DNA of 64,000 bases from Candidatus Omnitrophota bacterium (GCA_016783715.1 JADHWA010000001.1:118-64117); one strand, 5' to 3'. Positions 1,174 through 55,448 are shown, counted from the stretch's first letter. The notes: generated by a model not told the origin, from the letters alone. Made by a program: numbers and translations.

Positions 1174-1256
1174 GATTACGGTGATTAAAAATACAGATTG
1201 CAGAGATTATTTATCGACGAAACAATCTCTGTAATCTTATTAAAATCTCTGTAATC
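1174..1256. repeat. GATTACA-box element (trpC to trpF spacer): 2 direct + 2 inverted 14-mers
   Basis: GATTACGGTGATTA, GATTGCAGAGATTA, then AATCTCTGTAATC x2; flanked by the direct repeat ATTAAGTTAAT at 1138 and 1289. Confidence 0.6.
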
Positions 1257-1311
1257 ATAGGCTGGCACGAGTTTCGTGACAGCCTATTAAGTTAATCTAT
1301 AGAAGCTCTAA

Positions 1312-2103
1312 CTACCAACCCATCATATTTTCGACAGCTGCCTTTAGATCCGGCTCTTTCATAAAGGCTGTGCCGATCAGGCAGGCCTGGATACCCAGAA
1401 TCTTTAAGAACATTACATCCTGCTTGCTTTTTATGCCACTCTCTACAACTACGGTCTTATCCTTGGGTATCAAAAGATAAAGCCTTTCGGTGGTTTTGGA
1501 GTCAACCTCCAGTGTATGCAGGTTGCGGTTATTTATCCCAATCAGGTTAACTGCTTTTAACTTCAAGACTTTTTTCAGTTCCCTCTCATCATGCACCTCA
1601 ACCAATGCAGAGATCCCCAACTCCTGGGCAATCTGCGTGAAACTGGCAATCTGCTCCTGGGTCAGGAGATCGGCGATAAGAAGAAGGGCATCTGCGCCGT
1701 AGTAACGAGATTCATAGATCTGGTATTCATCAATGATAAAATCCTTGCGCAAGATCGGCACCTGGGTTAACTCCTTGACCTCTTTTAGATAATTGATATC
1801 CCCCTGGAAATAATCTTCTTCAGTCAAGACTGATATCGCCTGCACCTCTGTCTCCTGATAGGCTTTGGCGATCTCCAGATGGTTGAAATCCTGGCGGATC
1901 ACTCCTTGCGAAGGCGAGGCCTTCTTGATCTCTGCGATCAGCGAGATCTGGCGCGGCTTGTTTATTGCTTTTAAGAAGTCCCGCGTCGGCGCAAGCTCCG
2001 GAATTGCACTTTTAATCTGCTCCAGAGGCAGGGCTTCAATACACAGAGCGAGTCTTTCTTTCTTCTTAGCAATAATCTCTTTTAAGACATCTTTCTTGGC
2101 CAT
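1312..2103 (-). CDS. trpC: indole-3-glycerol phosphate synthase
   Basis: IAEIKKASPSQG and IGINNRNL motifs. Confidence 0.85.
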   Translation of the reverse strand: MAKKDVLKEIIAKKKERLALCIEALPLEQIKSAIPELAPTRDFLKAINKPRQISLIAEIKKASPSQGVIRQDFNHLEIAKAYQETEVQAISVLTEEDYFQGDINYLKEVKELTQVPILRKDFIIDEYQIYESRYYGADALLLIADLLTQEQIASFTQIAQELGISALVEVHDERELKKVLKLKAVNLIGINNRNLHTLEVDSKTTERLYLLIPKDKTVVVESGIKSKQDVMFLKILGIQACLIGTAFMKEPDLKAAVENMMGW

Positions 2104-2104
2104 T

Positions 2105-3112
2105 CTAAGTATTTGAATACTCCTTTAACAGGTTTAATTTATTTAATGCCTTTTTGGAATCGATTGAGTCCCTGGCGATGCCAATGCCTTCTTTGATCGA
2201 CCCTGCCTGATCAGCCGCATAGAGCCCAGCTGCGGCATTCAGCAACACTATATCTCTGACCGGCCCGCTTTTACCCTCTAATAGATCCAGAAGTATTTTA
2301 GCGTTCAATGATGCATCCCCTCCTGCTAAATCGCTGATTTTGGCTTTTTTGATACCGAAATCCTCCGGCGCGATCTCATAGTCAGTGATCTTTCCGTTAT
2401 TCTCTTCAGAGACCTCTGTTGAATCGGTGGTAGTTATCTCATCCAACCCATCCTTACCAGCCACCACTAAGGCATGCCTGGTCCCAAGTTTCGCCAATAC
2501 CTCGGCAAAACTTCTCGTCCATTCCTTACCGAAGACTCCAATCAGCTGGTGAGTGGCTCCGGCGGGATTGCTTAAAGGGCCGATCAGGTTGAATATCGTA
2601 CGCCTGGCTATCTGTTTTCTTGCCGGCATCGCGTATTTCATAGCCGGGTGCAGGCTCTGGGCAAAGAGAAATGCAATCCCTATTTTGTCCAGACACTCTT
2701 GTATCTTATCCGGAGTCATCTTGATATTTATACCTAAAGCCTCTAATATATCGGCGCTCCCGCATTTACTGGATACACTGCGGTTACCGTGCTTTGCCAC
2801 TGCTACCCCACTGCCACCAACTACAAAGGCCACTGCCGTAGAAATATTAAAGGTCCCCTTTTTGTCTCCGCCGGTCCCGCAGGTATCCAGGAGAACTTTT
2901 TGTTTTGTCTTGATCCTGGTGGCGTGCCTGCGCATTACCTTAACCGCGGCGAGCAGCTCATCCGGCGTCTCGCCTCTATTGCTCAACTGGGTTAAGAAAG
3001 AGACTACATCGGCAACTTCGGATTCTCCGCCCATTATCTCCTCCATCACCTGCTCGGTCTCTAGAGTAGATAAATCACGAGCCCTTAAGATCTTTACTGC
3101 TTCTTTAATCAT
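2105..3112 (-). CDS. trpD: anthranilate phosphoribosyltransferase
   Basis: GTGGDKKGTFNISTA and AKHGNRSVSSKCGSADILEALG motifs. Confidence 0.9.
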   Translation of the reverse strand: MIKEAVKILRARDLSTLETEQVMEEIMGGESEVADVVSFLTQLSNRGETPDELLAAVKVMRRHATRIKTKQKVLLDTCGTGGDKKGTFNISTAVAFVVGGSGVAVAKHGNRSVSSKCGSADILEALGINIKMTPDKIQECLDKIGIAFLFAQSLHPAMKYAMPARKQIARRTIFNLIGPLSNPAGATHQLIGVFGKEWTRSFAEVLAKLGTRHALVVAGKDGLDEITTTDSTEVSEENNGKITDYEIAPEDFGIKKAKISDLAGGDASLNAKILLDLLEGKSGPVRDIVLLNAAAGLYAADQAGSIKEGIGIARDSIDSKKALNKLNLLKEYSNT

Positions 3113-3672
3113 AACTTTAGGAAATTCCCCAACAATTTCTTCCCCTGCTGGGTAAGAATGGATTCGGGGTGAAACTGCACCCCCCAGAGAGGAAACCTCT
3201 TGTGCTTTATCCCCATAATCTCCTCACTCTTGGTCCAGGCAATAATATCGAAGCACTTCGGCAGGGCCGTCTTTGCAACAATCAGTGAATGGTAACGGGT
3301 AGCCTCAAAGGGACTGCTTATTCCTTTGAAGATATCCTTCTTGTTGTGATAGATAAGAGAGGTCTTCCCGTGCATCAATCTACGCGCTCCGACAATCTTA
3401 GCCCCAAAAACGTACCCCACTGCCTGGTGGCCAAGACATACTCCAAGGATCGGGACTTTCGAAGCAAACTCCTTTATCACCCTGCATGATATGCCTGAGC
3501 CTTCCGGGCGGCCCGGCCCGGGCGAGATCACTATTTTTTTTGGAGAGAGTTTCTTAATCTTTTCTATAGTTATCTTATCATTACGAAATACCTTTATCCT
3601 GACACCCAGCTCCCCTAAATATTGCACGAGATTGTAGGTAAAAGAGTCGTAATTATCAATCATTAAAATCAT
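3109..3672 (-). CDS. trpG: anthranilate synthase component II / glutamine amidotransferase
   Basis: MILMIDNYDSFTYNL, GVCLGHQ, HPES class-I GATase motifs; overlaps the trpD start. Confidence 0.8.
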   Translation of the reverse strand: MILMIDNYDSFTYNLVQYLGELGVRIKVFRNDKITIEKIKKLSPKKIVISPGPGRPEGSGISCRVIKEFASKVPILGVCLGHQAVGYVFGAKIVGARRLMHGKTSLIYHNKKDIFKGISSPFEATRYHSLIVAKTALPKCFDIIAWTKSEEIMGIKHKRFPLWGVQFHPESILTQQGKKLLGNFLKL

Positions 3673-3677
3673 AGGCC

Positions 3678-4940
3678 TTACTCTTTATCTTTTTTGATAC
3701 GAGCCCCTAATTCCTCTAACTTCTTCTCCATATTCTCGTACCCGCGCTCAAGATGGTAGATCCTGGTTACTGTGGTTTTCCCTTTAGCTATCAGTCCTGC
3801 TAAAACCAAAGATGCCGAGGCCCGCAGGTCAGATGCCATTACTACCGCTCCGGATAAATCTTTATTGCCAGAGATTATCGCATGCGGCCCTTCCCGCTGG
3901 ATATTTGCTCCCATGCGGTTTAACTCAGCGACATGCATAAATCTATCGGGGTAGATCTTTTCGGTTACAACGCTGATACCGGGAGTCACGCTCATCAGGC
4001 TCGTAAACTGCGCCTGCATGTCAGTGGGGAATCCCGGAAAAGGAAGTGTGGTAATGTTAACCGGTTTTATCTGACGACGGCAAGATACTCGAAGCGAAGA
4101 ATCCATTCTCCTAACTTGTACCCCTGCCTCCTGGACCTTATCAATCAAAGCCCCCAGATGCTGACTCAAGACATTCTTTATTGTAATATCCCCCCTGGTA
4201 ATTAAAGAGGCCAGGATAAATGTTCCGGCCTCGATCCTGTCCGGGATAATCCTGTGCTCGGCCCCATGCAAGTGCTTTACCCCCTCTATTTCGATAACCG
4301 GGGTACCGTGCCCTGAGATTTCAGCACCCATCTTAATCAGAAATTCCGCCAGATCCGCTACTTCAGGCTCACAGGCAGCGGATTCGATTGTGGTCTTCCC
4401 CCGGGCTAAAACCGCAGCCATCATTACATTGTCGGTCGCCAGCACCGAAGAGCCAAATACGCCGCCTAGATAAATCAGATTACCTTTAAGTGAATCTGCA
4501 GAGGCCGATATATATCCGGCATCAATATCTATATCAGCTCCCAGAGCCTTTAGGCCTTTGATGTGCAGGTCCACCGGCCTGATCCCAATTACGCATCCTC
4601 CGGGATATGAGACCTTTGCTTTCTTGAGTTTGGCCAAAAGCGGGCCCAATACGCAAAAAGAGGCCCGCATCTTAGATACCAATTCGTAATCTGCGATATG
4701 GCTTTTTCTCCTGCCGGATGTAACCGTAGCTATCCCCCTGTCAAACTCCACATTTTTACCAAGGGTCCGCAGGATCTTAAACATTGTCTCGGTATCGCGT
4801 AACTCCGGAATCCCTTTAATTATACAGGCATCATCAGTCATTAAGGTCGCCGCAAGTATCGGCAATGCCGAATTCTTCGCTCCCGATATCGAAACCTCTC
4901 CCTTAAGAGCTACCCCGCCTTCTATCACTAACTTATCCAT
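3678..4940 (-). CDS. murA: UDP-N-acetylglucosamine 1-carboxyvinyltransferase
   Basis: [20 protein letters not shown]-terminus. The ORF track starts 5 codons earlier (MRSLN) from an ATG created by the upstream repeat element; the likely start is the ATG at 4940. Confidence 0.9.
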
Positions 4941-4942
4941 AT

Positions 4943-5120
4943 TTAATGAGCGCATAACTTAGCGAAGCTAAGTTATAGCGTCCGTTATTTTACTTGTATA
5001 TAAGCGTGCGCGAATTAACCCAGCACTTATTTGGCATGTGCTTAGCATTCAACAAATAAGTGCTGGGCAAATTCCCCCGCACCCAAACAAGTAGTAGTAT
5101 ACACTTGACTGGGTGCGGGG
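4943..5120. repeat. type-A three-hairpin intergenic repeat element (fills the prmC stop to murA start spacer)
   Basis: hairpins ATAACTTAGC-GAA-GCTAAGTTAT, CCCAGCACTTATTTG..CAAATAAGTGCTGGG, CCCCGCACCCA..TGGGTGCGGGG; linker GCGAATTAA; termini AATGAG / TCATTT. Confidence 0.7.
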
Positions 5121-5948
5121 TCATTTGACCTTTTGCGCTATAATGATTCTCTCTATATTATTATAATCTCTAATTATCCTATAAACAGAAAAATCTTTCC
5201 TCTTTTTTAAAATACTCTCTACGGGCCTCCTCTGATTCAACCCGATCTCCAGGGCCAGAAACCCACCTGGCTGGAGATGTTTTAAGGAGCCAGCGATTAT
5301 CCTGCGATAAAAGTCTAATCCATCCCTGCCGCCATCTAAGCCAATACGCGGTTCATAACCAATCTCAGACGCCAAATTATCGATCTCTCCAGAGACAATA
5401 TAAGGCGGATTACTGACAATAATGTCGCATGTCGCATGTCGCATGTCGCATGTCGCAAACAAATCAGATTGGATAAACTCTATCCTTTTATCTACATAGT
5501 GCAAAGAGGCGTTATTTTTGGCTACTTCAAGCGCTTTCTCTGAAATATCAGTAGCGGTTATTGCTACCTGTGGTAATAATTTAGCCAGCGATACCGCAAT
5601 ACATCCCGAACCGGTACCTATCTCTAAGATCCTCCTACGATTAGCGATATGCGATAAGCGATTAGCTAACTTTATTATTGCTTCTACTAAAAGTTCTGTT
5701 TCCGGACGCGGGATAACCACTCCGGGATTTACCTTAAATTCAAAGCCCATAAATTCCTGTTTACCTAATATATACTGCAGGGGCTCACCTTTGGCTCTTC
5801 GTTTTAGAACAGAAGAGATCAAGCGCAATTGACTCTTATTAGGGGCCGGAGGTCTGCGGCTATAGAGGTCAATGCGATTGCACTTTAGAACATCGGTAAA
5901 TAATAATTCAGCTTCGTTCACCCAGCCTTTCCTCCTACTTGTACCCAA
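5121..5948 (-). CDS. prmC: release factor glutamine N5-methyltransferase
   Basis: IVSNPPYI motif, AdoMet-binding GTGSG; start uncertain (TTG as called; the N-terminus lies in a tandem repeat). Confidence 0.8.
   Translation of the reverse strand: MGTSRRKGWVNEAELLFTDVLKCNRIDLYSRRPPAPNKSQLRLISSVLKRRAKGEPLQYILGKQEFMGFEFKVNPGVVIPRPETELLVEAIIKLANRLSHIANRRRILEIGTGSGCIAVSLAKLLPQVAITATDISEKALEVAKNNASLHYVDKRIEFIQSDLFATCDMRHATCDIIVSNPPYIVSGEIDNLASEIGYEPRIGLDGGRDGLDFYRRIIAGSLKHLQPGGFLALEIGLNQRRPVESILKKRKDFSVYRIIRDYNNIERIIIAQKVK
5422..5456. repeat. heptamer microsatellite (ATGTCGC)x5 inside prmC coding sequence
   Basis: perfect 5 copies; encodes ATCDMRHATCD just before NPPY. Confidence 0.85.
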
Positions 5949-6043
5949 CCCTTTGGAAAGGCTGGGTCCTCCTACTTGTACCCAACCCTTTAGAAGGGCT
6001 GGGTCCTCCTATTTGTTTCCCAGTCCTTTATGAAGGGCTGGGT
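5931..6043. repeat. tandem repeat, 3 copies of 37-39 bp (CCTCCTACTTGTACCCAACCCTTTGGAAAGGCTGGGT) spanning the prfA stop and prmC start
   Basis: units at 5931-5967, 5968-6004, 6005-6043; the third unit encodes the prfA C-terminus. Confidence 0.8.
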
Positions 6044-7106
6044 CCTCTGCTGCCTTGATCAGAGCCAGAGAGACCTCATCAAGATCACCATCAAGCACTG
6101 CTTCTAATCGATGTATGGTAAAATTAATCCGATGGTCAGTAACCCGGCGGTCCGGAAAATTATAGGTACGGATCTTCTCGCTGCGATCCCCGGTACCGAT
6201 CTGTGAACGCCTCTCCTGGGAGACCTTCTTAGATTCCTCATGTTGTTTGGCATCCAGTAGGCGGGCGCGCAGTATACGCATTGCCCTAACTTTGTTTTTT
6301 CCCTGAGAACGCTCATCCTGACAGGCTACTACCGTACCGGTGGGGATATAGGTAATTCTCACTGCCGAATCAGTCTTTTGCATATGTTGGCCGCCGGGGC
6401 CGCTGGAGCGGTAAGTATCGATCCTCAGATCTTTGGCATCGATCTTTAAGTCTACTTCCTTAGGCTCAACCAGCACCGCTACCGTGGCCGTAGAGGTATG
6501 TATCCTCCCCTGCGCTTCGGTAACCGGAACACGCTGCACCCGGTGGACACCGCTTTCAAATTTAAGCCTCTTATAGGCATTCGGCCCTTTTACGCTAAAA
6601 GATACGTCTTTAAATCCCCCTGACTCATTGGTACTAGCTGACATCAACTCGACCTTCCACCCTTTATTGGCGGCATATTTTGTATACATCCGGTAAAGAT
6701 CAGCGGCAAATAGACCAGCCTCGTTTCCTCCGGTCCCCTGCCTGATCTCAACGATCAGATCCCTGCCCAAATCCTTGTCTTCTCCGGAAAGCATCTTCTT
6801 CAGGCGCTGCTGGAGGTCAACCCTCTTATTATTTAATTCCTCCGTCTCCTTTCGGGCCAGCTCCAGAAATTCTTCATCATGCTTCTCCTCTAAAACCTTT
6901 GCCAGATCGAGGATCTCGGCCGACACCCGCTGATACTCTAGAAACAACGCTACCGGCCCCCTAAGAGAAGCCATCTCCTTTGCGTATTTATTACACTCCT
7001 CCCTGTTTGAAATCACCTCAGGAGAAACTAAGAGCGCTTCCAGTTCCTGATATCTTTTTTTCATTGTTTCCAGCTGCTCGAACATAATAGTAAAACTCCC
7101 TGGCAC
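6009..7106 (-). CDS. prfA: peptide chain release factor 1
   Basis: GGQ motif ([10 protein letters not shown]), PVT tripeptide region, RF1 length. Confidence 0.9.
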
Positions 7107-7133
7107 CTACCTACTATCTACTAACTACTGATT

Positions 7134-7343
7134 TTAGTCTTTCTTTTTCTTCCCATATTTCTTCATATATTTATCTACCCGGCCTGCTGAATCAACGAAT
7201 TTCTGCTTACCGGTAAAGAAGGGGTGGCAGTTGGAGCAGACCTCCACTCTGATGTTCGGTTTTGTCGAGCGGGTATGTATGGTATTCCCGCAGGCACAGA
7301 CCACTACGCTATCCTGGTATTTTGGGTGAATCTTATCTTTCAT
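7134..7343 (-). CDS. rpmE: 50S ribosomal protein L31
   Basis: MKDKIHPKY..Cxx[14 protein letters not shown]. Confidence 0.85.
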
Positions 7344-7353
7344 TTTAACCTCC

Positions 7354-7476
7354 TAAATGAGTCCCGCAAATGTGGGACGAATTTTTGAGCACAACGCTCG
7401 TTTCTGTTTAGCGAAATCCCGCAAGCGCGGGGATCCCGCGTCCGCCGTTGCTCAGATATCTCGGACGGGGGATCTT
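7354..7476. repeat. type-B two-hairpin repeat element (rho stop to rpmE start)
   Basis: TAAATGAG + GTCCCGC..GTGGGAC + GAATTTTT .. CCCGCAAGCGCGGG .. GGGGGATCT. Confidence 0.55.
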
Positions 7477-7486
7477 TCTTCTTTTT

Positions 7487-8743: not shown

Positions 8744-9345
8744 AGTTTCCTCCTGATTTTACCTACTTGAAGTTTCGTCTTTTTTATCGATCCGTTATTA
8801 TCTATTACAAAATCCGCCATGCGGACCTTACAGGATAAAGGGATCTGTCTCTTGGCCCTCTTTAGAATTTGGTAGTGATTAAGCCCAGACCTGCTTTTGG
8901 CTCTCTTGAGCTGCTCGGCTTCCCCTATGTCTACAACAACCAGCCGGTCAACTTCATTATGCAACCCTGCCTCGATTAGAAGCGGGGCATCCAGAATAAT
9001 TTTTGGCTTTTTACAGGCGCGAATCTCTTCTTTAATGCTCTTGATCACCTCAGGATGCACTGCCCTATTAAGCTTATCTATGGTCTTCTTACTTATAAAG
9101 GCTTTCTCTGCAAGTTTGCGCCGGTCTATACTGCCGTCTTTCCTAAGAATGCCCTTACCAAAAGAAGAGATGATTCTCCTATAGCAGGCCTCCCCCGGTT
9201 TAGTCAGCCGGCGGGCGATCCTGTCTGCATCAATCACCAGGACATCCGGTGCCGCCAGCAGCTCTGTGACGGTGGTCTTCCCGCTAGAGAAACCCCCGGT
9301 TACCCCGACGATAGTCTTCTTCTTAGCCCTTTTACACCCTCTCAT
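8731..9345 (-). CDS. coaE: dephospho-CoA kinase
   Basis: [15 protein letters not shown]-loop; the track start at 9390 would overlap glgA by 59 nt; internal ATG at 9345 preferred. Confidence 0.75.
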
Positions 9346-26249: not shown

Positions 26250-26327
26250 AATTTTTTAGTAGATAGTATGTAGTAGTTAGGGTTTAGGGTGACTTTTTCC
26301 TTCCTACCCCTACATTCTACCTACTAT

Positions 26328-27437
<1,110 letters not shown>

Positions 27438-29753: not shown

Positions 29754-29959
29754 AAATAAAAGATTACAGAAATTATCAGGCTCAACAACAAACAGGTAGC
29801 CAGGGGAAAATAAACCGTAAAATTCTTCCTCTGGATTAAAATATCCCCCGGTAGCTTACCGGCAAAAGGAATCTTGTTAAAAAGAACAAGAATAACTCCT
29901 AAGATGACTAACGCTCCCCCTAAAAAAATTAGTGCTCTGCCCAACAGCCCTAGATTCAT
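29738..29959 (-). CDS. DUF2905-family small membrane protein
   Basis: two TM helices, KLPGDI motif. Confidence 0.5.
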   Translation of the reverse strand: MNLGLLGRALIFLGGALVILGVILVLFNKIPFAGKLPGDILIQRKNFTVYFPLATCLLLSLIISVIFYFWGKR

Positions 29960-37248: not shown

Positions 37249-37260
37249 TAGAACTCCTTC

Positions 37261-37345
37261 AATGAACACATAACTTAGCGAGTAATAGCGAAGCTAAGTT
37301 ATAAGTGTGAATTGAATCCGCCAGGCTTTGTGGCGGATAAATGTT
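37261..37345. repeat. type-B repeat element (proS 3' end to rimP start)
   Basis: AATGAACACATAACTTAGCG..CGAAGCTAAGTTATAAGTGTGAATTGAATCCGCC..GGCGGATAAATG; the second hairpin is inside proS coding sequence. Confidence 0.65.
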
Positions 37346-38567: not shown

Positions 38568-38614
38568 ATTTTAATTGAAGCTCTCAAAAAATTCTTAAAC
38601 CTACAGAGCTTTCT

Positions 38615-38676
38615 GATTACACAGATTAGAGTTAGATTACACAGATTAAACCTTTGATGAATTAATCTGTGTAATC
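38615..38676. repeat. GATTACA-box element (between the CpaF-like ATPase and proS)
   Basis: GATTACACAGATTA x2 direct, TAATCTGTGTAATC inverted (14-bp TIR-like). Confidence 0.7.
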
Positions 38677-38711
38677 GGTTTCTCTTAATCTTTTAATCAT
38701 ATGATTTTTTA

Positions 38712-39974
38712 TTAATCCTTATTAAAAATCTCTTTCGGCAGGGCCACGCCGGCTTTTTTTAGCATTGGGTAAAAACAAGGTACTATTCCCGTAGCCTTCC
38801 AGCGCCCGCGCACTTTTCCGCTCTGCTCAACATCTTCAATATCATAGTAAAAAATATCCTCTAATACCGCCCGACCGTTGGCCAGCCCGTTTACCTGGGC
38901 GATATGGGTAATTTTTCTTGTACCATCCACTAATTGATCCTGCTGAATCAGGATATTTACCGCCGCAGCAACCTGGCGGTGTATCGCATCCAGCCCTATG
39001 GGGACACCGGATGTCAGAATCATAGTCTCTATACGATAAATCACATCCTCCGGGGTATTGGCGTGAATAACCGCCAGGGAACCGGTGTGCCCGGAACAGA
39101 TCGCCTGAAGCATATCCAGGGCCTCGCCACCTCTGATTTCACCCAGGATGATTCGCTGCGGCCGCATACGCAAAGAATTCCTAAAGAGATCGCGGGTCGT
39201 GACCTCTCCTTTGCCTTCGATATTCGGCTGGCGAGTCTCCAGCCTTACGACGTGCTCCTGGAATAAGTGCAACTCCGCAGTATCCTCAATGGTAATAATA
39301 CGCTCCTGGTTATGGATATAGGTAGAAAGCACCCCCAAAGTTGTCGTCTTTCCGGAACCGGTGGCACCGCCTATAACAATATTCATCTTTGCCTTCATGC
39401 AGGCGATCAGAAAATCTGCCATACGCTTATCCAGGGTGCCGACCTTAAGCAGATCCTCCACCTTCTTGATAGTTTCTAAGAATTTCCTGATTGTCACTGT
39501 CACCCCGTCTAAGGCCAGGGGTGGAATTATTATATTTACGCGTGAGCCGTCTTTCAGGGAGACATCGGTAAAAGGAAAAAACTCATCGACGTGGCGGCGG
39601 GTAGGCATAAGGATCTTATCAACCAGGTGCCTAAGCTGATCCTCGCTCTCAAAGGTGGCTTTGCTTAGCTGCTTATGGCCGTCTTTTTCAATAAAAATCT
39701 TCTTTGCGCCATTGATCATGATTTCGGTAATCGTTGGGTCATTTAAGAGATCCTCGATCGGCCCAAACCCGATAAATTCGACTAAGAACTCATTCATCAA
39801 CGCCTGCCTGTCATTCAACGGGACAAGGATATTCTCATCCTGGGCAAGATCGTCGAATATCTCACTAAAGGCTCTTCTTAATTCACCCTCATCGAACTTT
39901 CCCTGCTGAGAAAATAATCCGCGGTAATCGGTTATTAACTTTTTCTTGATCTTCTCTTTGAGCTTTTTATCCAT
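38712..39974 (-). CDS. CpaF/TadA-family (VirB11-like) secretion ATPase, orphan
   Basis: GGATGSGKTTTL Walker A, ITIEDTAEL, His box; no pilus or secretion partners in the window. Confidence 0.75.
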   Translation of the reverse strand: MDKKLKEKIKKKLITDYRGLFSQQGKFDEGELRRAFSEIFDDLAQDENILVPLNDRQALMNEFLVEFIGFGPIEDLLNDPTITEIMINGAKKIFIEKDGHKQLSKATFESEDQLRHLVDKILMPTRRHVDEFFPFTDVSLKDGSRVNIIIPPLALDGVTVTIRKFLETIKKVEDLLKVGTLDKRMADFLIACMKAKMNIVIGGATGSGKTTTLGVLSTYIHNQERIITIEDTAELHLFQEHVVRLETRQPNIEGKGEVTTRDLFRNSLRMRPQRIILGEIRGGEALDMLQAICSGHTGSLAVIHANTPEDVIYRIETMILTSGVPIGLDAIHRQVAAAVNILIQQDQLVDGTRKITHIAQVNGLANGRAVLEDIFYYDIEDVEQSGKVRGRWKATGIVPCFYPMLKKAGVALPKEIFNKD

Positions 39975-45900: not shown

Positions 45901-45952
45901 CTACTAACCTCCTGTGTTCTATAATGTTATTAAAAATTTCGGTTGGAGCTTA

Positions 45953-45981: not shown

Positions 45982-46002
45982 GAGCTAAATTTTTACCTGA
46001 AG

Positions 46003-47286
<1,284 letters not shown>

Positions 47287-48522: not shown

Positions 48523-48535
48523 AACAATCCTCCTT

Positions 48536-48720
48536 CAATGAGCAGATCCTTGACATCGGAGATGTCAAGGATAGCGTCAATCGTTTATCAGTCTATCAGC
48601 GTCTGCGAATTGAACCCAGCACTAATTTTGCTTCGGATCGTAAACTACAGAAAATTAGTGCTGGGTAAAATTCAGCCACCGAACTTACCTCGCTTACTCT
48701 CCGTAAGTTCGGGCTTCATT
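48536..48720. repeat. type-A three-hairpin repeat element (stop of the nucleotidase-like gene to leuA-like start)
   Basis: collinear with 4943-5120: linker AGCGTC..GCGTCTGCGAATTGAACCCAGCAC conserved, hairpin sequences swapped (CCTTGACATC../..GATGTCAAGG; CCGAACTTAC..GTAAGTTCGG). Confidence 0.7.
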
Positions 48721-50505
48721 TTACCTCCTGAATATTTTCTTGAATTCCTCTTGGCTGCCTGGGCCGCTGGTGCTGAAAATCTGCTGATTATCGATTAAGA
48801 ATGTAGGCCCGAACATAACCTGTAATTCACTATTAAGCCTGATGTTCTCGCTGAGCAAATCTCTTCCCTCCTGACTCCTGGCACAGTCTCTGACCCGGGA
48901 GACGTCGCATTCACCCGATAGACACTCCTCCCACCAGGAGCTGTTGATATTTTTTGCCCGGCAGATTATATAATCCCAGAAATCCTGCGGACACCAAGTT
49001 TTGACACAGAGGCTGCGCAGATACTCCTCGATCTCACCGGTGCCACCGGCAGAATCGAATTTACCCTCTAGCTCGGTGGCCAGGAAGTGAATCCGGGGAT
49101 CAAAACTCCTGGTTGCTTCTAATATAGACGATGAATACTTATTGTAGAGGCTTATGAATAGGTCAAGGCCCCCGGATATTTTCTTCCTGTTGATATAATA
49201 GGATACGCCCGAGAATTCCGGTTTAAGTATTAGAAACTCATCCCCCTCGACGAACTTCTCTCTTAAGGCCCCAAAATTAGGCTCTTCGACGATCTCTTTC
49301 TCAAAGATAAAGGCCGGCAGAGTCTGGATATCCAGCTCGGCGACTATTTTCCTGGCTTGCCTTTGGGGATAGACAAGCTTAGAAGTAGTTACCCCTGGAA
49401 ATGTCTCTTCAAGATAAGTAATACTCCCGGCTGCATTAAACAACTCCCTTCTCTTGGGTTCAATTACCCAGAGCTTAACCTCCCCGGCAGGAGTAAATTC
49501 ACACTTAGCATCTGAAGTGCCCGGATTACCACAGGAGGCAATACTTCCTTTCTTCTTGCAATCGTTATCCCTGAAACACTGCGGCAGGACAGATTTAATC
49601 TCAGGATCGTCCCTAAACTTCTTGGTCAGTTCTATATCTTCGCTCTTTACATCTGTTATCCGGCCTGCCTCTATCTCCAGGGTAACCTTGCCTAAACTTC
49701 TGGCCTGCCAGGAAGGCTGTAAGATTATGGTGGAACTCTCTTCTGCCGTAAGGTCCTTCTCCATCCTGTTGTATCTGGTTATAAGTAGATCTACCCCCGG
49801 CACCTTCTTGACTAACTCCAGATCTTCACCCGGATCCAGCCGGCTCAAAAGTATGATTACTCCGACCTGATTATCTTTTAGCTGCTTAATCGTATCCCGG
49901 AGCGCTTCTTGGGGGGCGCTGACGCTGACACCGGATACTCTTCTGGCTATCCTGGGAGCTGATATGCCGATAATCCCCACCTTGACACTGCCGACTTGCT
50001 TGATAATAAAAGGATGAATCTTATCAAGCTTAACATTGCATGATACAAGCGGGAATTTATTCTCGTCGGAGAATTTTGTAAAGAACTCTTTCCCGAAGCC
50101 AAACTCATCCTCTCCGATACAGGCAGCGGTATACCCCATCAATTGCATCGCCCTGATATTGGCCAGTGTTCTCTCTTTATCAAGCCGGGAATTCTGCGCG
50201 TATTCATCTTGTGGTCCCCCGGCAAAAAAAGATCCCGAATCAAGTAATAAGGCATCAGGAGCCTGCTTTCTGATCTGCTTTACCAGCGTAGACCTACGGG
50301 CTAAACCCCCGTTTCGCTCGTGCGGGCAGTCACAAGGGTATAGCATCGCGTGAGTGTCGCCGGTATATAAAATTGTAATTTCCTCCGCGAAAGAGAGCGA
50401 AAAGTTCAAAACGCAAAGTGCAAAACTAAAACTTAAAGCTAAAAGCTTTACACTTTTAACTTCACCTTTGCGCTCTGCGCTTTGCGCTTTGCGCTTATTT
50501 ATCAT
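48721..50505 (-). CDS. secreted calcineurin-like metallophosphoesterase / 5'-nucleotidase-family protein with Cys-rich and DsbA-like C-terminal extension
   Basis: signal peptide; GDTHA metallophosphatase motifs; C-terminal GPTFLIDNQ resembles a thioredoxin-fold cis-Pro loop; many Cys. Confidence 0.55.
   Translation of the reverse strand: MINKRKAQSAERKGEVKSVKLLALSFSFALCVLNFSLSFAEEITILYTGDTHAMLYPCDCPHERNGGLARRSTLVKQIRKQAPDALLLDSGSFFAGGPQDEYAQNSRLDKERTLANIRAMQLMGYTAACIGEDEFGFGKEFFTKFSDENKFPLVSCNVKLDKIHPFIIKQVGSVKVGIIGISAPRIARRVSGVSVSAPQEALRDTIKQLKDNQVGVIILLSRLDPGEDLELVKKVPGVDLLITRYNRMEKDLTAEESSTIILQPSWQARSLGKVTLEIEAGRITDVKSEDIELTKKFRDDPEIKSVLPQCFRDNDCKKKGSIASCGNPGTSDAKCEFTPAGEVKLWVIEPKRRELFNAAGSITYLEETFPGVTTSKLVYPQRQARKIVAELDIQTLPAFIFEKEIVEEPNFGALREKFVEGDEFLILKPEFSGVSYYINRKKISGGLDLFISLYNKYSSSILEATRSFDPRIHFLATELEGKFDSAGGTGEIEEYLRSLCVKTWCPQDFWDYIICRAKNINSSWWEECLSGECDVSRVRDCARSQEGRDLLSENIRLNSELQVMFGPTFLIDNQQIFSTSGPGSQEEFKKIFRR
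50467..50494. repeat. heptamer microsatellite (TTTGCGC / TCTGCGC)x4 at codons 5-13 of the nucleotidase-like gene
   Basis: 4 copies, 1 variant; encodes KRKAQSAERK. Confidence 0.7.
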
Positions 50506-52088
50506 ATTTTTATCGCCCTAACCTCTAGAATATTCTTGATCTTTTTGAGCTGTTTTAGGATATCCGCGGAAACCGGGGTATCGATATTCAAAACTGATAT
50601 TGACTTACCGCCGGGTTTATCCCGTCCGAAGGTCATTGCCGCAATATTAATATTGTGTTTAGCCAGCATACTCCCGAGATTTCCGATAATGCCGGGCAAA
50701 TCCCGGTTATGAATAACCAGCATAACCCCGCCAGGGGAAACCTCTACATAATAATTGTTGATCTTTACGATGCGCGGCTTCTTGTTTGCCGAAAGTGTCC
50801 CGGAGACCTTAAGTGTCTCCTTATCGGTCTTGATCTCCAATTCAACCAGAGTCACAAACTCCTGCTCTTTTGACAGCCTGGATTCCTTAATCGTAATACC
50901 CCTGCCGCTGGCAAGGCTGGTGGCATTGATAAAATTAACCGTCTCCTGTAATATAGGAAAGAGGACCCCTCTGACCGCAGCCATAGTCAAGGGGCTAAGC
51001 TCATATGTAGCTATCTCTCCGCCATAGCTTATATTTACCGTTTCTATCCTCCCGACTGCCAACTGCCCGCAGAAGTTACCTAATTTCTCCGCCAGGCTGA
51101 TATAGGGCTCTAGAACCTTGTATACCTCTGCCTCAAGACAGGGATAATTTGCCGCATTTCTGATTCCTTTTCCCAAGAGGGCATCGCGGACGATCTCTGC
51201 TACTTCGACTGCGACATTGACCTGTGCCTCCTCTGTAGAAGCGCCCAGGTGCGGGGTAACTACGATATTCTCCTGCTGTAAGAGCTGGCTATCTGCGGAT
51301 AACGGCTCCTTCTCGAAGACATCAATCGCCGCACCAGCTACTTTTTTGCTCTTGACTGCCTCAACCAGTGCTTTCTCATCGATAATTCCGCCCCGGGCGC
51401 AATTAACCAGCCGGACCCCGTCTTTCATTAAAGCAAATTCCTTGGTAGAGATCATATGTTTAGTCTCTTCGGTTAAAGGGGTATGCACGCTAATATAGTC
51501 GGAGCGCTTAAATAAATCCTTGAGCTCTACGATCTCAACGCCTAAGCTTTCAGCGACCTGCTTGGATAAAAAGGGATCATAGGCCAAGATCTTCATCCCG
51601 AATGATAAGGCCCTTTTAGCCACCTCTGAACCTATGCGTCCGAAACCGACTACTCCCAAGACCTTATTGTAAACCTCCACCCCCATGAATTTAGAGCGGT
51701 TCCATTCTCCTTTTTGCATAGAGGCATTTGCTTGAGGGATATTACGGGAGAGTGAAAGGATCATACTCATGGTATGCTCGGCGGTAGACATGGTATTCCC
51801 CGCCGGGGTATTCATCACGATAATCCCCTTTTGGGTTGCCGCTGCCAAATCTACATTATCTAATCCTACTCCGGCGCGGCCGATAACTTTCAGATTCCCT
51901 GCTGCCTCAATAACCTCTCTGGTTACCTTTGTGGCAGAGCGCACGATCAAGGCATCATAATCCTTTATCACCTTTACAAGCTGCTCGGGTGTCAACCCGG
52001 TATTGACATCAACCTTAAAGTCCTTCACCTCTTTTAAGACTTTAAGGCCGTTTTCAGACAGTTTATCGCTGACCAATATATTCATCAT
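50502..52088 (-). CDS. serA: D-3-phosphoglycerate dehydrogenase (with ACT domain)
   Basis: 2-hydroxyacid dehydrogenase GxGxxG, long C-terminal ASB/ACT. Confidence 0.85.
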   Translation of the reverse strand: MMNILVSDKLSENGLKVLKEVKDFKVDVNTGLTPEQLVKVIKDYDALIVRSATKVTREVIEAAGNLKVIGRAGVGLDNVDLAAATQKGIIVMNTPAGNTMSTAEHTMSMILSLSRNIPQANASMQKGEWNRSKFMGVEVYNKVLGVVGFGRIGSEVAKRALSFGMKILAYDPFLSKQVAESLGVEIVELKDLFKRSDYISVHTPLTEETKHMISTKEFALMKDGVRLVNCARGGIIDEKALVEAVKSKKVAGAAIDVFEKEPLSADSQLLQQENIVVTPHLGASTEEAQVNVAVEVAEIVRDALLGKGIRNAANYPCLEAEVYKVLEPYISLAEKLGNFCGQLAVGRIETVNISYGGEIATYELSPLTMAAVRGVLFPILQETVNFINATSLASGRGITIKESRLSKEQEFVTLVELEIKTDKETLKVSGTLSANKKPRIVKINNYYVEVSPGGVMLVIHNRDLPGIIGNLGSMLAKHNINIAAMTFGRDKPGGKSISVLNIDTPVSADILKQLKKIKNILEVRAIKI

Positions 52089-52117
52089 CCTACACTCCTT
52101 TAATGTTCCTGCAAAAA

Positions 52118-52232
52118 ACTCTAAACCCTAAATCCTAAACCCTAAATAAAATCCTAAATCCAAAACTCAAATTATTAAAAATAAAACTTTGGGTTTGTTT
52201 AGAGTTTAGTGTTTCGAACTTAGGATTTAAAA
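52118..52232. repeat. CCCTAAA-type heptamer repeats plus long imperfect inverted repeat between the serC-like gene and serA
   Basis: AACTCTAAACCCTAAATCCTAAACCCTAAAT.. pairs with ..GTTTAGAGTTTAG..TTAGGATTTAAA. Confidence 0.6.
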
Positions 52233-52235
52233 TCA

Positions 52236-53381
52236 TTATTCACCTTGCAAAAAGACTTCTTCGGCGGCTCGGACACCCGCGCCTAACTCGAATTTGTACC
52301 CCATCTGAGTAAGAACCTTCTCTAAGCAGCAGATACCGGCAATAATATCGAGCTCCTCAATAAAACCCATGTGGGCGATACGGAATATCTTTCCTTTAAG
52401 CTGGGCCTGTCCGCCGGCGATAGTTACCCCGTATTGATCGCGCATGGTCTTAACTAACTTTTCACCGTCTATCCCTTCGGGAACCCTTACGGCGGTTACC
52501 GCATCCGAGGCAGCATCGACACTGAGTAATTCCAGCCCTAAGGCCTTCATCGCCGTACGGGTGGCAACTGCCAGCCTCTTATGACGTGTAAAGATATTCT
52601 CTAATCCGTCTTTGCGCATAATCTTCAGGGCTTCCTTTAATGCAATCACCAGAGTAATCGCCGGAGTAAAGGCGGTATCAAACTTATCCAGCGCCTTCTT
52701 GGCGGCCTTTAAATTAAAATAGTATGCAGCAGCCTTATTGCCGTCTATTATCCCCCATGCTTTTTTTGAGACGCTCATAAAGGCAAGCCCTGGAGGAAGC
52801 ATTAATCCTTTTTGTGACCCTGAAACACAGATATCTACACCCCAGGCATCGGTCTTCATATCAATCGCTCCTAATCCGCTGATCGCATCTACGACTAACG
52901 CTGCCTGAGCCCCCTTGGCGATCTTGCCTATAGCCTGGATATCCGTTGTGACACCTGTAGAGGTCTCACAGAGTGTAGTGAACACCGCCTTAATCTTGGG
53001 ATTAGCCTTTAATTTTTTTTCTATCTCTTTGGGATCGACCGCCTGGCCCCACTCTACATCAATAACCTCCGCATTTATTCCGTAGGCCTTGGCAATCTCT
53101 GCCCATCTCTCGCCGAATTTTCCGCCCTGAACTGTTAAAACCGTATCCCCTTTGGAGGCCAGGTTCACAACCGCTGCCTCCATAGCTCCGGTGCCCGAAG
53201 ATGTCAATACAAAACAGTCATTTGCGGTCTGGAAGATAACTTTTAGCCCCTCACAGACCTCTTTGAATATCTCCTGGAAGTCAGGTGTGCGGTGATGGAT
53301 TATCGGCTGTGCCTGCGAGAGAAGCACCTCAGGAGGCAATGGCGTTGGCCCAGGCGTCAATAAATATTTCTTTTTCATCAT
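52236..53381 (-). CDS. class-V aminotransferase (phosphoserine or serine-glyoxylate type), probable SerC function
   Basis: PGPTPLPPEVL N-terminus, PLP-lysine region; adjacent to serA. Confidence 0.65.
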   Translation of the reverse strand: MMKKKYLLTPGPTPLPPEVLLSQAQPIIHHRTPDFQEIFKEVCEGLKVIFQTANDCFVLTSSGTGAMEAAVVNLASKGDTVLTVQGGKFGERWAEIAKAYGINAEVIDVEWGQAVDPKEIEKKLKANPKIKAVFTTLCETSTGVTTDIQAIGKIAKGAQAALVVDAISGLGAIDMKTDAWGVDICVSGSQKGLMLPPGLAFMSVSKKAWGIIDGNKAAAYYFNLKAAKKALDKFDTAFTPAITLVIALKEALKIMRKDGLENIFTRHKRLAVATRTAMKALGLELLSVDAASDAVTAVRVPEGIDGEKLVKTMRDQYGVTIAGGQAQLKGKIFRIAHMGFIEELDIIAGICCLEKVLTQMGYKFELGAGVRAAEEVFLQGE

Positions 53382-53394
53382 TACTATTCTCCTT

Positions 53395-53526
53395 CAATAA
53401 GCTGACCCAGCCCTTGCATGCAAGGGCGGGGTAGCATCTATTGTTTACCAATCTATTAAGCGTCTGCGCATTGAACCCAGCACCCAGTCTAGTATTTATA
53501 TTACTTGTTTGGGTGCGGGGTCATTT
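53395..53526. repeat. type-A repeat element (upstream of the serC-like gene)
   Basis: GTTTACCAATCTATTAAGCGTCTGCGCATTGAACCCAGCAC block about 85% identical to 48582-48625; ends GGGTGCGGGGTCATTT as at 5103-5120. Confidence 0.7.
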
Positions 53527-53555
53527 ACTTCTTCTTTTTCATATGAGCTATTACT

Positions 53556-53655
53556 TAAATGAGCACATCACTTAGCGAGCACTAGCGAAGCTAAGTGATA
53601 AGTGCGAATTAATCCCGGGACTCCATATCTTAATATGCGGAGGCCAGGGATCTTC
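53556..53655. repeat. type-B two-hairpin repeat element flanked by the 31-bp duplicated clpP 3' end
   Basis: TAAATGAGCACATCACTTAGCG..CGAAGCTAAGTGATAAGTGCGAATTAATCCCGGGACTCC..GGAGGCCAGGGATCT; the stem carries the compensatory pair AACT>CACT / AGTT>AGTG. Confidence 0.7.
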
Positions 53656-53662
53656 TCGTATT

Positions 53663-54277
53663 CTACTTCTTTTTCTTCATATGAGCTATTACTTCGTCTA
53701 CCAGCCCATAGGTCTTGGCTTCTTCTGCAGACATAAAATAATCCCTGTCAGTGTCCTTCTGAATCTTCTCCAGAGATTGTCCGGTATGCTGTGCGAGGAT
53801 CTGGTTAATCTTATCTTTCATTTTTAGTATTTCTTTGGCCTGTATCGATATGTCCGATGCCGCCCCCTGTACTCCGCCCCATGGTTGATGAATCATAACC
53901 CGCGAATTCGGCAGGGTATGGCGTTTCCCCTTGGTCCCGGCAGATAAAAGTAATGCCCCCATACTGGCAGCCTGGCCTACGCAGTAGGTAGCTACGTCAC
54001 ATTTTACAAACTGCATAGTATCGTATACCGCAAGACCTGCAGTCACCGAACCGCCGGGGGAATTTATATATATATTGATATCTTTATTTACATCTTCCAT
54101 CTGCAGAAAAAGCATCTGCGCGATAATCAGATTAGCTACGGTATCGTCAATCGGGGTACCGATAAAAACAATCCTGTCTTTTAGCAGGCGTGAATAGATA
54201 TCGTATGCCCGCTCATATCCCCGTGCAGTCTGCTCAATCACCATCGGAACTAAGACCTGCGCTTTTTCGCTACTCAT
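53663..54277 (-). CDS. clpP: ATP-dependent Clp protease proteolytic subunit
   Basis: Ser-His-Asp triad context [11 protein letters not shown]; the track N-terminal extension is rejected and the start is the ATG at 54277 (AGGAGG upstream). Confidence 0.9.
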
Positions 54278-54288
54278 CCTACACCTCC

Positions 54289-54405
54289 TAAATGAGCCCC
54301 GCCCTTTTTTACCAATAAACAAATTATATTTTTTTAAGGTACAAAAGAGCGGGGCGAATTTATCCCGGGCAGCCATTTTTCCTTTCGTCAGCTGCGTGGG
54401 ATCTC
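54289..54405. repeat. type-B two-hairpin repeat element (tig stop to clpP start)
   Basis: TAAATGAGCCCCGCCCTTTT..AAAAGAGCGGGGCGAATTTATCCCGGGCAGCC..GCTGCGTGGGATCTC. Confidence 0.6.
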
Positions 54406-54448
54406 AAATAATATCAATAATAATATTCCTGGCGCCTCGTTAATCTGA

Positions 54449-55327
54449 CTATCCCTGCTGCCAATCAGCTTCCCTAAGCAGGAATTCGATCACCTTCTGC
54501 GGCATCTGGTCATTTACCTCTATATTCTCTTTTTTAGCTATATGTGCTAACACCAAATAATCCCTGACCTGCCTCTTTGCCTCCGGCTCCAGCTGCTGAC
54601 GCAGCTGCTTTTCCTGCTTATCTATCTCCTGGCGCTCCACACCCTTTAAGGCTAGATTTACTTTGGCCTGCCGTAACATCTCATCCTGATGCCTGCTTAC
54701 CATAACCTGAGGGATTTTAAGGTCCAGGTCTTTGGTGAGCCCTTCGATTAGATCCTTCTCTATTCTTTGCCTCTGCTGATTCTCCTTACGGATAAAGATC
54801 TGTCTCTCTAAAGCAGCCTTTAACTCCGCAAGATCAGGATAACCGATGCTTCTGGCGAAGCGGTCATCAATACTGTCGAGTTTCCTGGACTCCTTTAAGG
54901 CATCAAGGTCGCGCTTAAGCTCATCGGCTGCTACCTCAATCTTCTTATAATTGACTCTGATCCCCTTATATTTCTTTAACTGGATCTCCGGCATCACTTC
55001 AACCGTTGCGGTAAACTTTAGCTCATCTCGCTTAATATGTACGTCTGTTACCTGCGGCATCTCGATCACATCAAGCGCTTCAGCTTTTACCACTTCGTCA
55101 TAAACCTCAGGGATCAGATTCTTAAGCACAAGCTCTTGCGCGTGACCAGAGAAGTTTTTCTCTAAAATATCGCGAGGGGCATGCCCGGGCCTAAAACCCG
55201 GGATTTTGGCGCTCTTTGATATCTCGCCAAAGGCCTCTTCGAATTTATTCTTTATACGTTCACCGCTTACTTCGATATCGATCTGGCGTTTTGTACTATC
55301 AAGTTTCTTTACTTCTGACTTTGTCAT
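54449..55327 (-). CDS. tig: trigger factor, natural PPIase-less short form (N and C domains only)
   Basis: ribosome-binding GFRPGHAP signature; C-domain aligns to E. coli TF with the FKBP domain absent. Confidence 0.8.
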   Translation of the reverse strand: MTKSEVKKLDSTKRQIDIEVSGERIKNKFEEAFGEISKSAKIPGFRPGHAPRDILEKNFSGHAQELVLKNLIPEVYDEVVKAEALDVIEMPQVTDVHIKRDELKFTATVEVMPEIQLKKYKGIRVNYKKIEVAADELKRDLDALKESRKLDSIDDRFARSIGYPDLAELKAALERQIFIRKENQQRQRIEKDLIEGLTKDLDLKIPQVMVSRHQDEMLRQAKVNLALKGVERQEIDKQEKQLRQQLEPEAKRQVRDYLVLAHIAKKENIEVNDQMPQKVIEFLLREADWQQG

Positions 55328-55374
55328 TCCTTGTCTCCAGGTTTAATTGTTAGATATAATCAAAGGCTACAGTT

Positions 55375-55448
55375 GATTACACAGATTATAAAATAGATTA
55401 CTCAGATTAAAACTCTTATCTGCGTAATCTGAATTAATCTGTGTAATC
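55375..55448. repeat. GATTACA-box element (lptB to tig spacer)
   Basis: GATTACACAGATTA, GATTACTCAGATTA direct; TATCTGCGTAATC and TAATCTGTGTAATC inverted. Confidence 0.7.

Follow-up and report, generated by a model that had tools for sequence, protein, structure and literature searches.

Site arrays and insertions in the Omnitrophota window

The window, as the whole stretch of DNA analysed here is termed, comprises 64 kb of a Candidatus Omnitrophica metagenome-assembled genome (MAG); its TrpF is a 100% match to a protein bearing that NCBI name. Every long open reading frame (ORF) of the window is on the minus strand. Three intergenic spacers, those of trpC/trpF, of a T2SSE (CpaF-like) ATPase gene and proS, and of lptB and the trigger factor gene, carry arrays of a 14-bp site. 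These arrays, the small elements to which they belong, and related arrays elsewhere that enclose a gene for a GxxExxY protein are the subject of this work.

The motif GATTAC-NNN-GATTA, described in an earlier note made from the sequence alone, is confirmed at all three loci by direct reading and by a scan of the window. Loci 1 (1174–1256) and 3 (55375–55448) each have two direct and two inverted copies of the site. Locus 2 (38615–38676) has two direct copies and one inverted copy, plus a degenerate fourth site of 13 nt at 38686–38698; this last site was overlooked in the earlier note. With three or fewer mismatches allowed, 18 matches are found in the window vs 6.1 ± 2.6 expected, and 18 was reached in none of 100 shuffles. 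Strong sites (10 or more of the 11 fixed positions matched) that occur in clusters all lie within the intergenic 3.2 kb (5%) of the window. Start-to-start spacing is 20–22 bp, both in the window and in 55 related arrays; the earlier note had given a half-site spacing of about 20 bp. A solitary intergenic site, GATTACAGAAATTA, is present on the plus strand at 29762–29775 with no partner sites, and may be the remnant of a decayed array.

Comparison with relatives, which the earlier note had proposed, reveals empty sites at both trpC–trpF and ispG–proS. At locus 1, the trpC–trpF spacer is 23–24 bp long in relatives with 88, 78 and 78% TrpF identity; a relative with 73% identity (L224) has a divergent 40-bp spacer. 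The relatives with the 23–24 bp spacer (L218–L222) contain ATTAACTTAAT once, with one substitution in L222. Aligned on the minus strand, the empty site reads ...TATAG ATTAACTTAAT GG..., and the window reads ...TATAG ATTAACTTAAT (139 bp) ATTAACTTAAT GG.... The inserted unit, 1149–1287, is 139 bp in length and is flanked by the duplicated target ATTAACTTA(AT). The duplication has a core of 9 nt (up to 11 bp), with a boundary that is ambiguous by ±2 nt, and sits 0–2 nt upstream of the trpF ATG. An 11-bp direct repeat had been suggested as a target-site duplication at this locus; the single copy in the empty sites bears this out, but the second copy starts at 1286 and not at 1289. The locus 1 element (143 bp) is 82–86% identical to copies in two other Omnitrophota MAGs. 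Its arm A ends 1 nt (one T) before site 1 and is nearly invariant in seven copies from other genomes, and the arm B hairpin of the inserted unit has the sequence TAGGCTGGCACGAGTTTCGTGACAGCCTA.

At locus 2, two relatives with 91 and 85% ProS identity have ispG, the same ATPase gene, a 3-bp spacer (GGATTAA AAG ATG) and proS. The insertion (141 bp) abuts the proS start codon, and its size is estimated at about 132–141 bp. The duplication is degenerate here, with flanking copies that agree with the target, CTTTTAATC, at 7 of 9 positions. The ATPase gene had been regarded as an orphan inserted between ispG and proS, but the order ispG-ATPase-proS-rimP-nusA is conserved in the relatives. This T2SSE/CpaF-TadA-like ATPase gene (38712–39974) occupies the same position in relatives with 85–91% ProS identity, and no other pilus or secretion genes are found beside it.

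The unit enters AT-rich 9-mers by block insertion with duplication, and at loci 1 and 2 it lies directly upstream of a start codon, between adjacent co-directional genes. The outer arms belong to the mobile unit. Because the inserted unit and the flanking repeats extend 24–32 bp beyond the arrays, the 14-mers are subterminal and do not form the terminal inverted repeats first proposed; with the outer hairpin arms included, the true unit is about 130–140 bp and not 62–83 bp. In order, the unit consists of an outer arm of 25–31 bp (usually a hairpin), two direct 14-bp sites of the form T-GATTAC-RSN-GATTA, a short loop, two inverted sites and a second outer arm. The outer hairpins stand 1 nt from the array on both arms of locus 1 and on one side of locus 2. 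Coordinates are collected in Table 1.

Table 1. Positions of the sites, arms and duplications at the three loci (numbered from the first nucleotide of the window)
Feature	Position	Strand	Remarks
Locus 1, left target-site duplication copy, ATTAAGTTAAT	1138–1148		once in empty sites L218–L222, twice in window
Locus 1, outer arm A, hairpin AGGGCGTCAC AAAA GTGCCGCCCT	1149–1173	+	carries element terminus (T)AGGGCG
Locus 1, site 1, GATTACGGTGATTA	1174–1187	+	motif scan
Locus 1, site 2, GATTGCAGAGATTA	1196–1209	+	motif scan; 8-nt spacer after site 1
Locus 1, loop TTTATCGACGAAA, 13 nt	1210–1222		place of the GxxExxY ORF in gene-bearing cassettes
Locus 1, site 3, GATTACAGAGATTG	1223–1236	-	motif scan
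Locus 1, site 4, GATTACAGAGATTT	1243–1256	-	motif scan; one A, then arm B
Locus 1, outer arm B, hairpin ATAGGCTGGCACGAGTTTCGTGACAGCCTAT	1257–1287	+	terminates in an imperfect inverted repeat of the end of arm A (TAGGSYGTCAC)
Locus 1, right target-site duplication copy, ATTAAGTTAAT	1286–1296		pairs with 1138–1148
Locus 2, entire ATPase–proS spacer	38568–38711		144 nt, about 141 inserted relative to the relatives' 3 nt
Locus 2, outer hairpin AAGCTCT ... AGAGCTT	38578–38611	+	sequence reading, folding
Locus 2, site 1, GATTACACAGATTA	38615–38628	+	motif scan
Locus 2, site 2, GATTACACAGATTA	38635–38648	+	motif scan
Locus 2, site 3	38663–38676	-	motif scan
Locus 2, degenerate site 4, GATTA-AAA-GATTA, one base short, 13 nt	38686–38698	-	sequence reading
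Locus 3, extended inverted repeat with four sites	55364–55459		between lptB and the trigger factor gene
Locus 3, site 1	55375–55388	+	motif scan
Locus 3, site 2	55396–55409	+	motif scan
Locus 3, site 3	55416–55429	-	motif scan
Locus 3, site 4	55435–55448	-	motif scan

Related arrays and cassettes with a GxxExxY gene

The pattern GATTACNNNGATTA-N5–9-GATTNCNNNGATTA was scanned over 185,579 species-representative genomes and is found at no fewer than 119 loci, where our own estimate of chance matches is about 1.4 at equal base frequencies and about 8 at 35% GC. The matches listed carry the labels Omnitrophota (most), Elusimicrobia/Endomicrobiales, Planctomycetia, 'Deltaproteobacteria'/Thermodesulfobacteriota, Firestonebacteria, Desantisbacteria, Bacteroidota (Mucilaginibacter, Chitinophagaceae), Dehalococcoidia, Nitrospinota and others. 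Among these listed matches, 55 of the 88 clusters with three or more sites are exactly '++--', and relaxed detection gives 67 unique '++--' arrays. Site spacers are 6–8 nt and A-rich, loops are mostly 5–30 nt, and the sites share the consensus T-GATTAC-[A/g][C/G][A/c/t]-GATT[A/t]. Several MAGs account for many of the loci: there are three copies in the 64 kb of the window, and five arrays within 8 kb in L048. The earlier note held a regulatory site to be more likely if the motif were confined to three loci, with no empty sites and no duplications; what is found is at least 119 loci in the genomes scanned, empty sites for loci 1 and 2, and a duplication at locus 1.

The genes next to the arrays are unrelated in function (trpF, proS and tig in the window; lptB, pfk, rpsG, obg and others elsewhere). 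When 293 ORFs that adjoin arrays were clustered, only housekeeping genes and GxxExxY genes recurred. Viral contigs gave 15 pattern matches and one distant GxxExxY locus, which are uninformative.

Seven copies can be aligned over their full length, and all have TAGGSYGTCAC as inverted termini. The ends of this A/B subfamily, TAGGGCGTCAC and GTGACAGCCTA, form an imperfect inverted repeat in addition to the inverted 2+2 sites. Five of the seven aligned copies, as well as L126, whose arms are unrelated, have flanking direct repeats of their own, which sit 24–32 bp outside the arrays; repeats of 8–10 bp are TTTAATGA in L062, TTTTATTCA in L096, TAAATTTTT in L102, CCTAAAAA in L104 and TTAAATTAG in L126. 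Flanking repeats of 8 bp or more are present in 25 of 95 arrays vs 13.6 ± 3.3 (maximum 21) when left and right flanks are paired by shuffling. It should be pointed out that the loci behind the hairpin and cassette statistics were chosen by motif or by gene. The outer hairpins are of several types, termed A, B, C (GGTATAAT..ATTATACC), D (AGACATCC..GGATGTCT) and E (GGTTCTT..AAGAACC), and all adjoin sites (type C in 86 of 86 cases, in a sample selected for arrays).

Array variants are also observed. L050:2609–2776 has six direct and two inverted sites, L212:2367–2540 has 4+4 sites, and the loop of L068:2585–2826 holds a nested, unrelated hairpin repeat, GTCATTCCCGA...TCGGGAATG. In five 'Deltaproteobacteria' MAGs (L016, L038, L059, L076 and L118), gene-less arrays are preceded by AGGAG and an ATG that overlaps site 1 (AT|GATTAC). 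This ATG opens a mini-ORF of 12 codons that is closed by the TAA in site 2, and downstream there is a conserved AATTTCTTTCATAGGAGG followed by the ATG of the next gene. Some GxxExxY ORFs begin at the same site-1-overlapping ATG (MITEIKKQIPEIK...).

A transposase or regulator associated with the arrays had been proposed as a thing to look for. Neither is seen among the at least 119 loci, but a nuclease gene is. In four of the pattern-selected loci, 364 bp separate the '++' pair from the '--' pair, with a single ORF between them, and L091 has remnants of the same ORF inside its array. The ORF encodes a 123-aa protein that matches PF13366 PDDEXK_3 (E = 2e-36) and TIGR04256 'GxxExxY protein' (E = 5e-38), and its catalytic signature E...D...ExK is invariant. 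A fold search returns generic nuclease-fold matches only (tRNA-splicing endonuclease, Cas4, Hjc), PADLOC gives only a marginal Cas4a2 match, and a sequence search of the PDB gives none. The gene is fitted closely to the sites: the start codon lies within them, either as the GTG in GATTACAGTGATTA or as an ATG overlapping site 1, and the stop codon TAA is formed by the first three bases of site 3 (TAATC...).

This arrangement was followed in 80 metagenomic loci encoding relatives with 59–79% identity to the query protein, of which 76 have enough flanking sequence. Sites flank the gene on both sides in 69 of the 76 and the full 2+2 set is present in 57, at positions -28 and -7 from the start and -3 and +16/17 from the end, against a background of 0.54 sites per kb. 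These loci represent one clade of GxxExxY proteins, and the register is fixed, the start codon falling in site 2 and the stop codon in site 3. In the cassette frame, hairpin D follows directly after the stop codon of the upstream gene, and on the other side come hairpin C, AGGAG and the ATG of the next gene. The cassette gene has the same orientation as the gene upstream of it in 56 of 61 cases, and as the one downstream in 60 of 62. Many of the cassette contigs are only 0.5–1.3 kb long. Cassettes are found in many contexts, yet they are stably inherited at orthologous positions (flanks 85–90% identical). In motif, spacing and orientation the window arrays agree with the cassette sites, and a gene-less array between rpsL and rpsG (L083) has the same C and D hairpins as a gene-bearing locus (L032).

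Two other candidates for cargo or for a parent element were rejected. Split '++ ... --' pairs 0.7–4 kb apart were considered as autonomous elements, but they enclose ordinary genes or a frameshifted serine recombinase without a matching right end. A remA-like ORF in L100, considered as another cargo, has a half array on one side and a distinct, decayed array on the other. At L014:173–1909 a half array ('++') precedes a frameshifted gene for a large serine recombinase by 15 bp, and no matching right-hand pair is present.

In cultured bacteria, plasmids and chromids carry distant homologues (31–44% identity), which are likewise wedged between housekeeping genes of the same orientation, e.g. fabD-GxxExxY-fabG on a plasmid of Sphingomonas parapaucimobilis (L238) and radA-GxxExxY in Bacteroides finegoldii (L236). 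Several of these genes are flanked by short repeats of about 9-bp period: 3+3 inverted CACAGAGGA in Bacteroides (L236), 2+3 inverted ACACAGAGA in Bernardetia (L235) and 1+1 inverted ACACGGATTCG in Treponema (L234). Direct repeat modules stand on both sides of the gene in Fusobacteria and Prevotella, and a short repeat run only upstream of it in Sphingomonas (L238). The core ACA(C/G)(A/G)GA is common to the inverted sets, the Fusobacteria sites and the centre of the window 14-mer.

The GxxExxY family comprises 16,986 clusters (50% identity, E ≤ 1e-3), of which many are tandem fusions. Many representatives (P0363, P0367, P0371 and others) are about 260–275 aa in length, with two matched stretches, as expected of such fusions, and this hints that the GxxExxY unit may work as a dimer. 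In a survey of PD-(D/E)XK proteins, the function of GxxExxY/PF13366 is listed as unknown and 'multiple transfers' are noted (PMC3424549). The literature, of which our coverage is incomplete, yielded no earlier description of a link between GxxExxY genes and such repeats or arrays, and mentions of GxxExxY and PF13366 were incidental; within the same coverage, the 14-mers were found in no paper and no link between Omnitrophota and miniature inverted-repeat transposable elements (MITEs) was encountered.

The probable mobile elements and the alternative readings

The three loci are best viewed as non-autonomous, MITE-like elements of about 130–140 bp, gene-less relatives of the GxxExxY nuclease cassette; we place the probability of this reading at roughly 0.8. 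Several MITE features are present: small size (139 bp at locus 1, about 132–141 bp at locus 2), no ORF of note, multiple copies, inverted repeats, and a duplication relative to the empty site. The earlier note had named a MITE as one of two readings, and for loci 1 and 2 this is upheld by the empty sites in relatives and by the duplication at locus 1. By comparison with the cassettes, the window copies would be to the nuclease cassette what MITEs are to their parent elements. Deletion derivatives may provide one route to gene-less copies, as suggested by the ORF remnants in L091 and by arrays that keep the cassette ribosome-binding site and ATG.

The fixed positions of the sites are conserved across phyla without compensatory pairing and suggest recognition by a protein. 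Selection on an RNA or single-stranded DNA stem finds no support in the arrays, since pairing partners show no excess identity in the variable triplet and no compensatory pairing: identity is 0.58 (s1–s4) and 0.65 (s2–s3) for hairpin partners, 0.68 (s1–s2), 0.70 (s3–s4) and 0.70 (s2–s4) for non-partners, and 0.50 for random pairs. Kept as sequence in this way, the sites look like protein-binding sites.

Perhaps the four sites bind a mobilizing or servicing protein, two at each end, and are joined in a synapse, with cutting 24–32 bp outside the arrays and a 9-nt staggered cut in the target. The most likely binder, although we hold it at somewhat less than an even chance, is the cassette's own GxxExxY nuclease acting in trans. 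It is favoured because it is the only gene found inside the arrays, because of its fixed register, and because of the analogous repeats at distant members. An unlinked transposase comes next, as a possible but slightly less probable binder. When transcribed with its host genes, the element would fold into three stems on the mRNA, and as a matter of speculation this fold may help insertions to be tolerated. The larger proposal is that GxxExxY proteins are sequence-specific nucleases that mobilize their own cassettes and gene-less copies via repeats of about 9-bp period, and that they represent a new class of PD-(D/E)XK-driven mobile element. This we consider unlikely.

Several findings weigh against the reading as a whole. 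Locus 3 shows no outer hairpins and no detectable flanking duplication, and for these reasons it is probably a copy that is older or has been trimmed; an exact-protein look-up made for an empty site there gave the same genome alone. Outer arms vary from one subfamily to the next, and a terminal inverted repeat is lacking in L126; such variability of arms and ends is unusual for a transposase that recognizes element ends. Searches by tblastn and hidden Markov model find no GxxExxY ORF within the 64-kb window, and between split arrays no transposase or other recombinase is present in any locus examined. Flanking direct repeats are not enriched at gene-bearing cassettes (11 vs 8.2 ± 2.7), and the cassettes are stably inherited, so that their own mobility is only putative. 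Also, the phylum assignments are the labels of the MAG records, taken as given.

The strongest alternative is an ordinary MITE, mobilized by the unlinked DDE-type transposase of a full-length insertion sequence with the same subterminal sites, the GxxExxY gene being a passenger that became fixed in one derivative. This has a fair amount in its favour and is a real possibility, though not a probable one. A 9-bp duplication is typical of the DDE families IS1, IS4, IS903 and IS256; the A/B subfamily has its imperfect terminal inverted repeats; two binding sites per end are known for several transposons; the gene-bearing cassettes show no duplication of their own; and, to our knowledge, there is no precedent for so small a PD-(D/E)XK transposase. 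However, none of the 119 or more pattern-selected loci is a transposase-bearing version, whereas four or five carry GxxExxY. The gene register is held in 69 of 76 loci spanning 59–79% identity, and together with the analogous repeats at distant GxxExxY genes this looks like a co-adapted unit and not a passenger. Element ends that are not conserved between subfamilies also fit poorly.

A second alternative reverses the roles: the arrays are dispersed landing pads, and GxxExxY, like a homing endonuclease, cuts the loop and copies itself in via arms of about 35 bp. PD-(D/E)XK homing endonucleases do exist, e.g. I-Ssp6803I, and the ORF fills exactly the loop position. Homing would explain the absence of a duplication at gene-bearing copies, and the gene-less L083 and the gene-bearing L032 share hairpin types C and D. 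It leaves unexplained how the arrays themselves spread with 9-bp duplications, and the decay of the gene inside the L091 array shows that deletion also occurs. Orthologous arrays that are empty in one genome but filled in another were not encountered, a weak test in a gene-selected sample. We consider homing improbable.

More doubtful still is the view that the arrays are host-domesticated transcript elements akin to repetitive extragenic palindromic (REP) sequences and bacterial interspersed mosaic elements (BIMEs), acting in processing by RNase III or another enzyme, as mRNA stabilizers or as insulators between cistrons, and retained on that account. The arrays do stand between co-oriented genes, with outer hairpins only 1 nt away; in the cassettes, AGGAGG and then the next start codon come after hairpin C; and a mosaic of hairpin modules around a central motif recalls BIMEs. 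Folding is strong at the three loci (z = -9.1, -5.9 and -5.5), but inverted repeats produce such folds automatically. The stems lack covariation support, and it is sequence rather than pairing that is conserved across phyla. Rfam 15 gives no match in the whole window at the gathering score, and the window contains no tRNA and no tmRNA. Moreover, the elements at loci 1 and 2 inserted recently and are missing in close relatives, and so are not conserved host features. A role in the transcript is compatible with a mobile origin rather than an alternative to it: the array stem might be processed while the outer hairpins protect the flanking messages.

The other reading of the earlier note, operator arrays for a dimeric regulator of the downstream genes, draws on the sequence-conserved sites, their spacing of about two helical turns and their position upstream of start codons, but it is very improbable given that the sites arrived within insertions of 139–141 bp with target duplication and are absent at the relatives' orthologous junctions, that neighbours at the at least 119 loci are functionally unrelated, that no linked regulator is seen, that promoter and terminator scans at the three loci give nothing above chance, and that five arrays in 8 kb (L048) are unlike a regulon.

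Known systems, other repeats and biological meaning

With the elements viewed as MITE-like relatives of a nuclease cassette, their closest counterparts are bacterial MITEs, such as Correia/NEMIS of Neisseria, RUP of Streptococcus pneumoniae, ERIC/IRU and Nezha of cyanobacteria. These are alike in small size (about 140 bp), non-coding sequence, multiple copies, intergenic location, inverted-repeat architecture, target duplication, insertion polymorphism and co-transcription with neighbours. They differ in that what is conserved here, across phyla, is a 2+2 array of 14-bp sites in subterminal position, whereas the termini vary between subfamilies. In addition, no transposase-bearing parent insertion sequence is known here, and the only gene-bearing relative encodes a 123-aa PD-(D/E)XK nuclease.

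REP/BIME sequences and their RAYT (TnpA-REP) proteins offer a likeness in their mosaic of intergenic palindromic units, with hairpin modules flanking a protein-binding central motif (as in BIME-1 with IHF). REPs are conserved palindromes with a 5' GTAG-type tetranucleotide, and no target duplication is expected of them. The 14-mer differs in that it is non-palindromic (internal direct repeat GATTA-N4-GATTA), the hairpins vary and there is a 9-bp duplication. RAYT is not seen among the array neighbours, although no genome-wide search for it was made.

The ends of Tn7, Mu, Tn552 and IS21, and the inverted-repeat/direct-repeat (IR/DR) ends of Sleeping Beauty, also have two direct sites per end, inverted between ends, at a spacing of about two turns. 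These systems have duplications of 2–7 bp, DDE transposases and conserved terminal nucleotides, whereas here the sites lie 24–32 bp from the ends and no DDE enzyme is linked.

The intervening sequences of 23S rRNA in Leptospira and others hold a small ORF ('four helix bundle / S23p') in a long inverted-repeat loop. They too have a small selfish ORF within inverted repeats, co-transcribed with the host unit, and the stem could be cut by RNase III. The elements described here differ in being found in strings of protein-coding genes, with a GxxExxY ORF and flanking arrays of a sequence-conserved motif.

Integron attC sites (R''-L'' ... L'-R') are alike in that their short sites, in two pairs, make up an imperfect palindrome around a variable centre and go with small promoterless, co-oriented cassettes. 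In attC it is structure that is conserved, recombination by IntI leaves no duplication, and cassettes form tandem arrays beside the integrase; here it is the sequence that is conserved, single copies are scattered between housekeeping genes, there is a 9-bp duplication and an integrase is lacking.

Small palindromic elements of other kinds are plentiful in the intergenic DNA of this genome. A separate repeat family, with the core hairpin AACTTAGC..GCTAAGTT, is present at 4942–4977, 37257–37320 and 53554–53617. At proS/rimP it forms an insertion of about 73 bp relative to L227 and L229, where the genes abut, and it lengthens the ProS C-terminus (422 aa vs 413–416 aa). Two further intergenic hairpin families, GAATTRAACCCAGCAC... 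and GGGCAAATTCCCCCGCACCC..., are found at 5012–5074 and 48607–48673, and at 5065–5130 and 53499–53526, respectively. A tandem repeat with 37–39 bp units (TCCTCCTACTTGTACCCAACCCTTTRGAARGGCTGGG) occupies 5930–6047, at the junction of two ORFs, and intergenic CTACCTACTATCTAC repeats with short TTTAGGG/CCCTAAA-like runs are found at 26256–26346, 7098–7136 and 52118–52144.

What was an anonymous repeat is now a demonstrable mobile element, with pairs of filled and empty sites, in the uncultivated phylum Omnitrophota, and one that has inserted immediately before the start codons of essential genes without loss of those genes. For annotation it is relevant that such elements create spurious ORF extensions and break metagenome assemblies. 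The large GxxExxY/PF13366 family gains a concrete candidate substrate in the flanking GATTAC-type repeats, and the findings suggest that GxxExxY genes are selfish cassettes that reside between co-oriented host genes. If the nuclease is indeed the mobility enzyme, this would be a new transposition chemistry, and nuclease-driven mobility would account for about 17,000 GxxExxY clusters (at 50% identity) of no known function.

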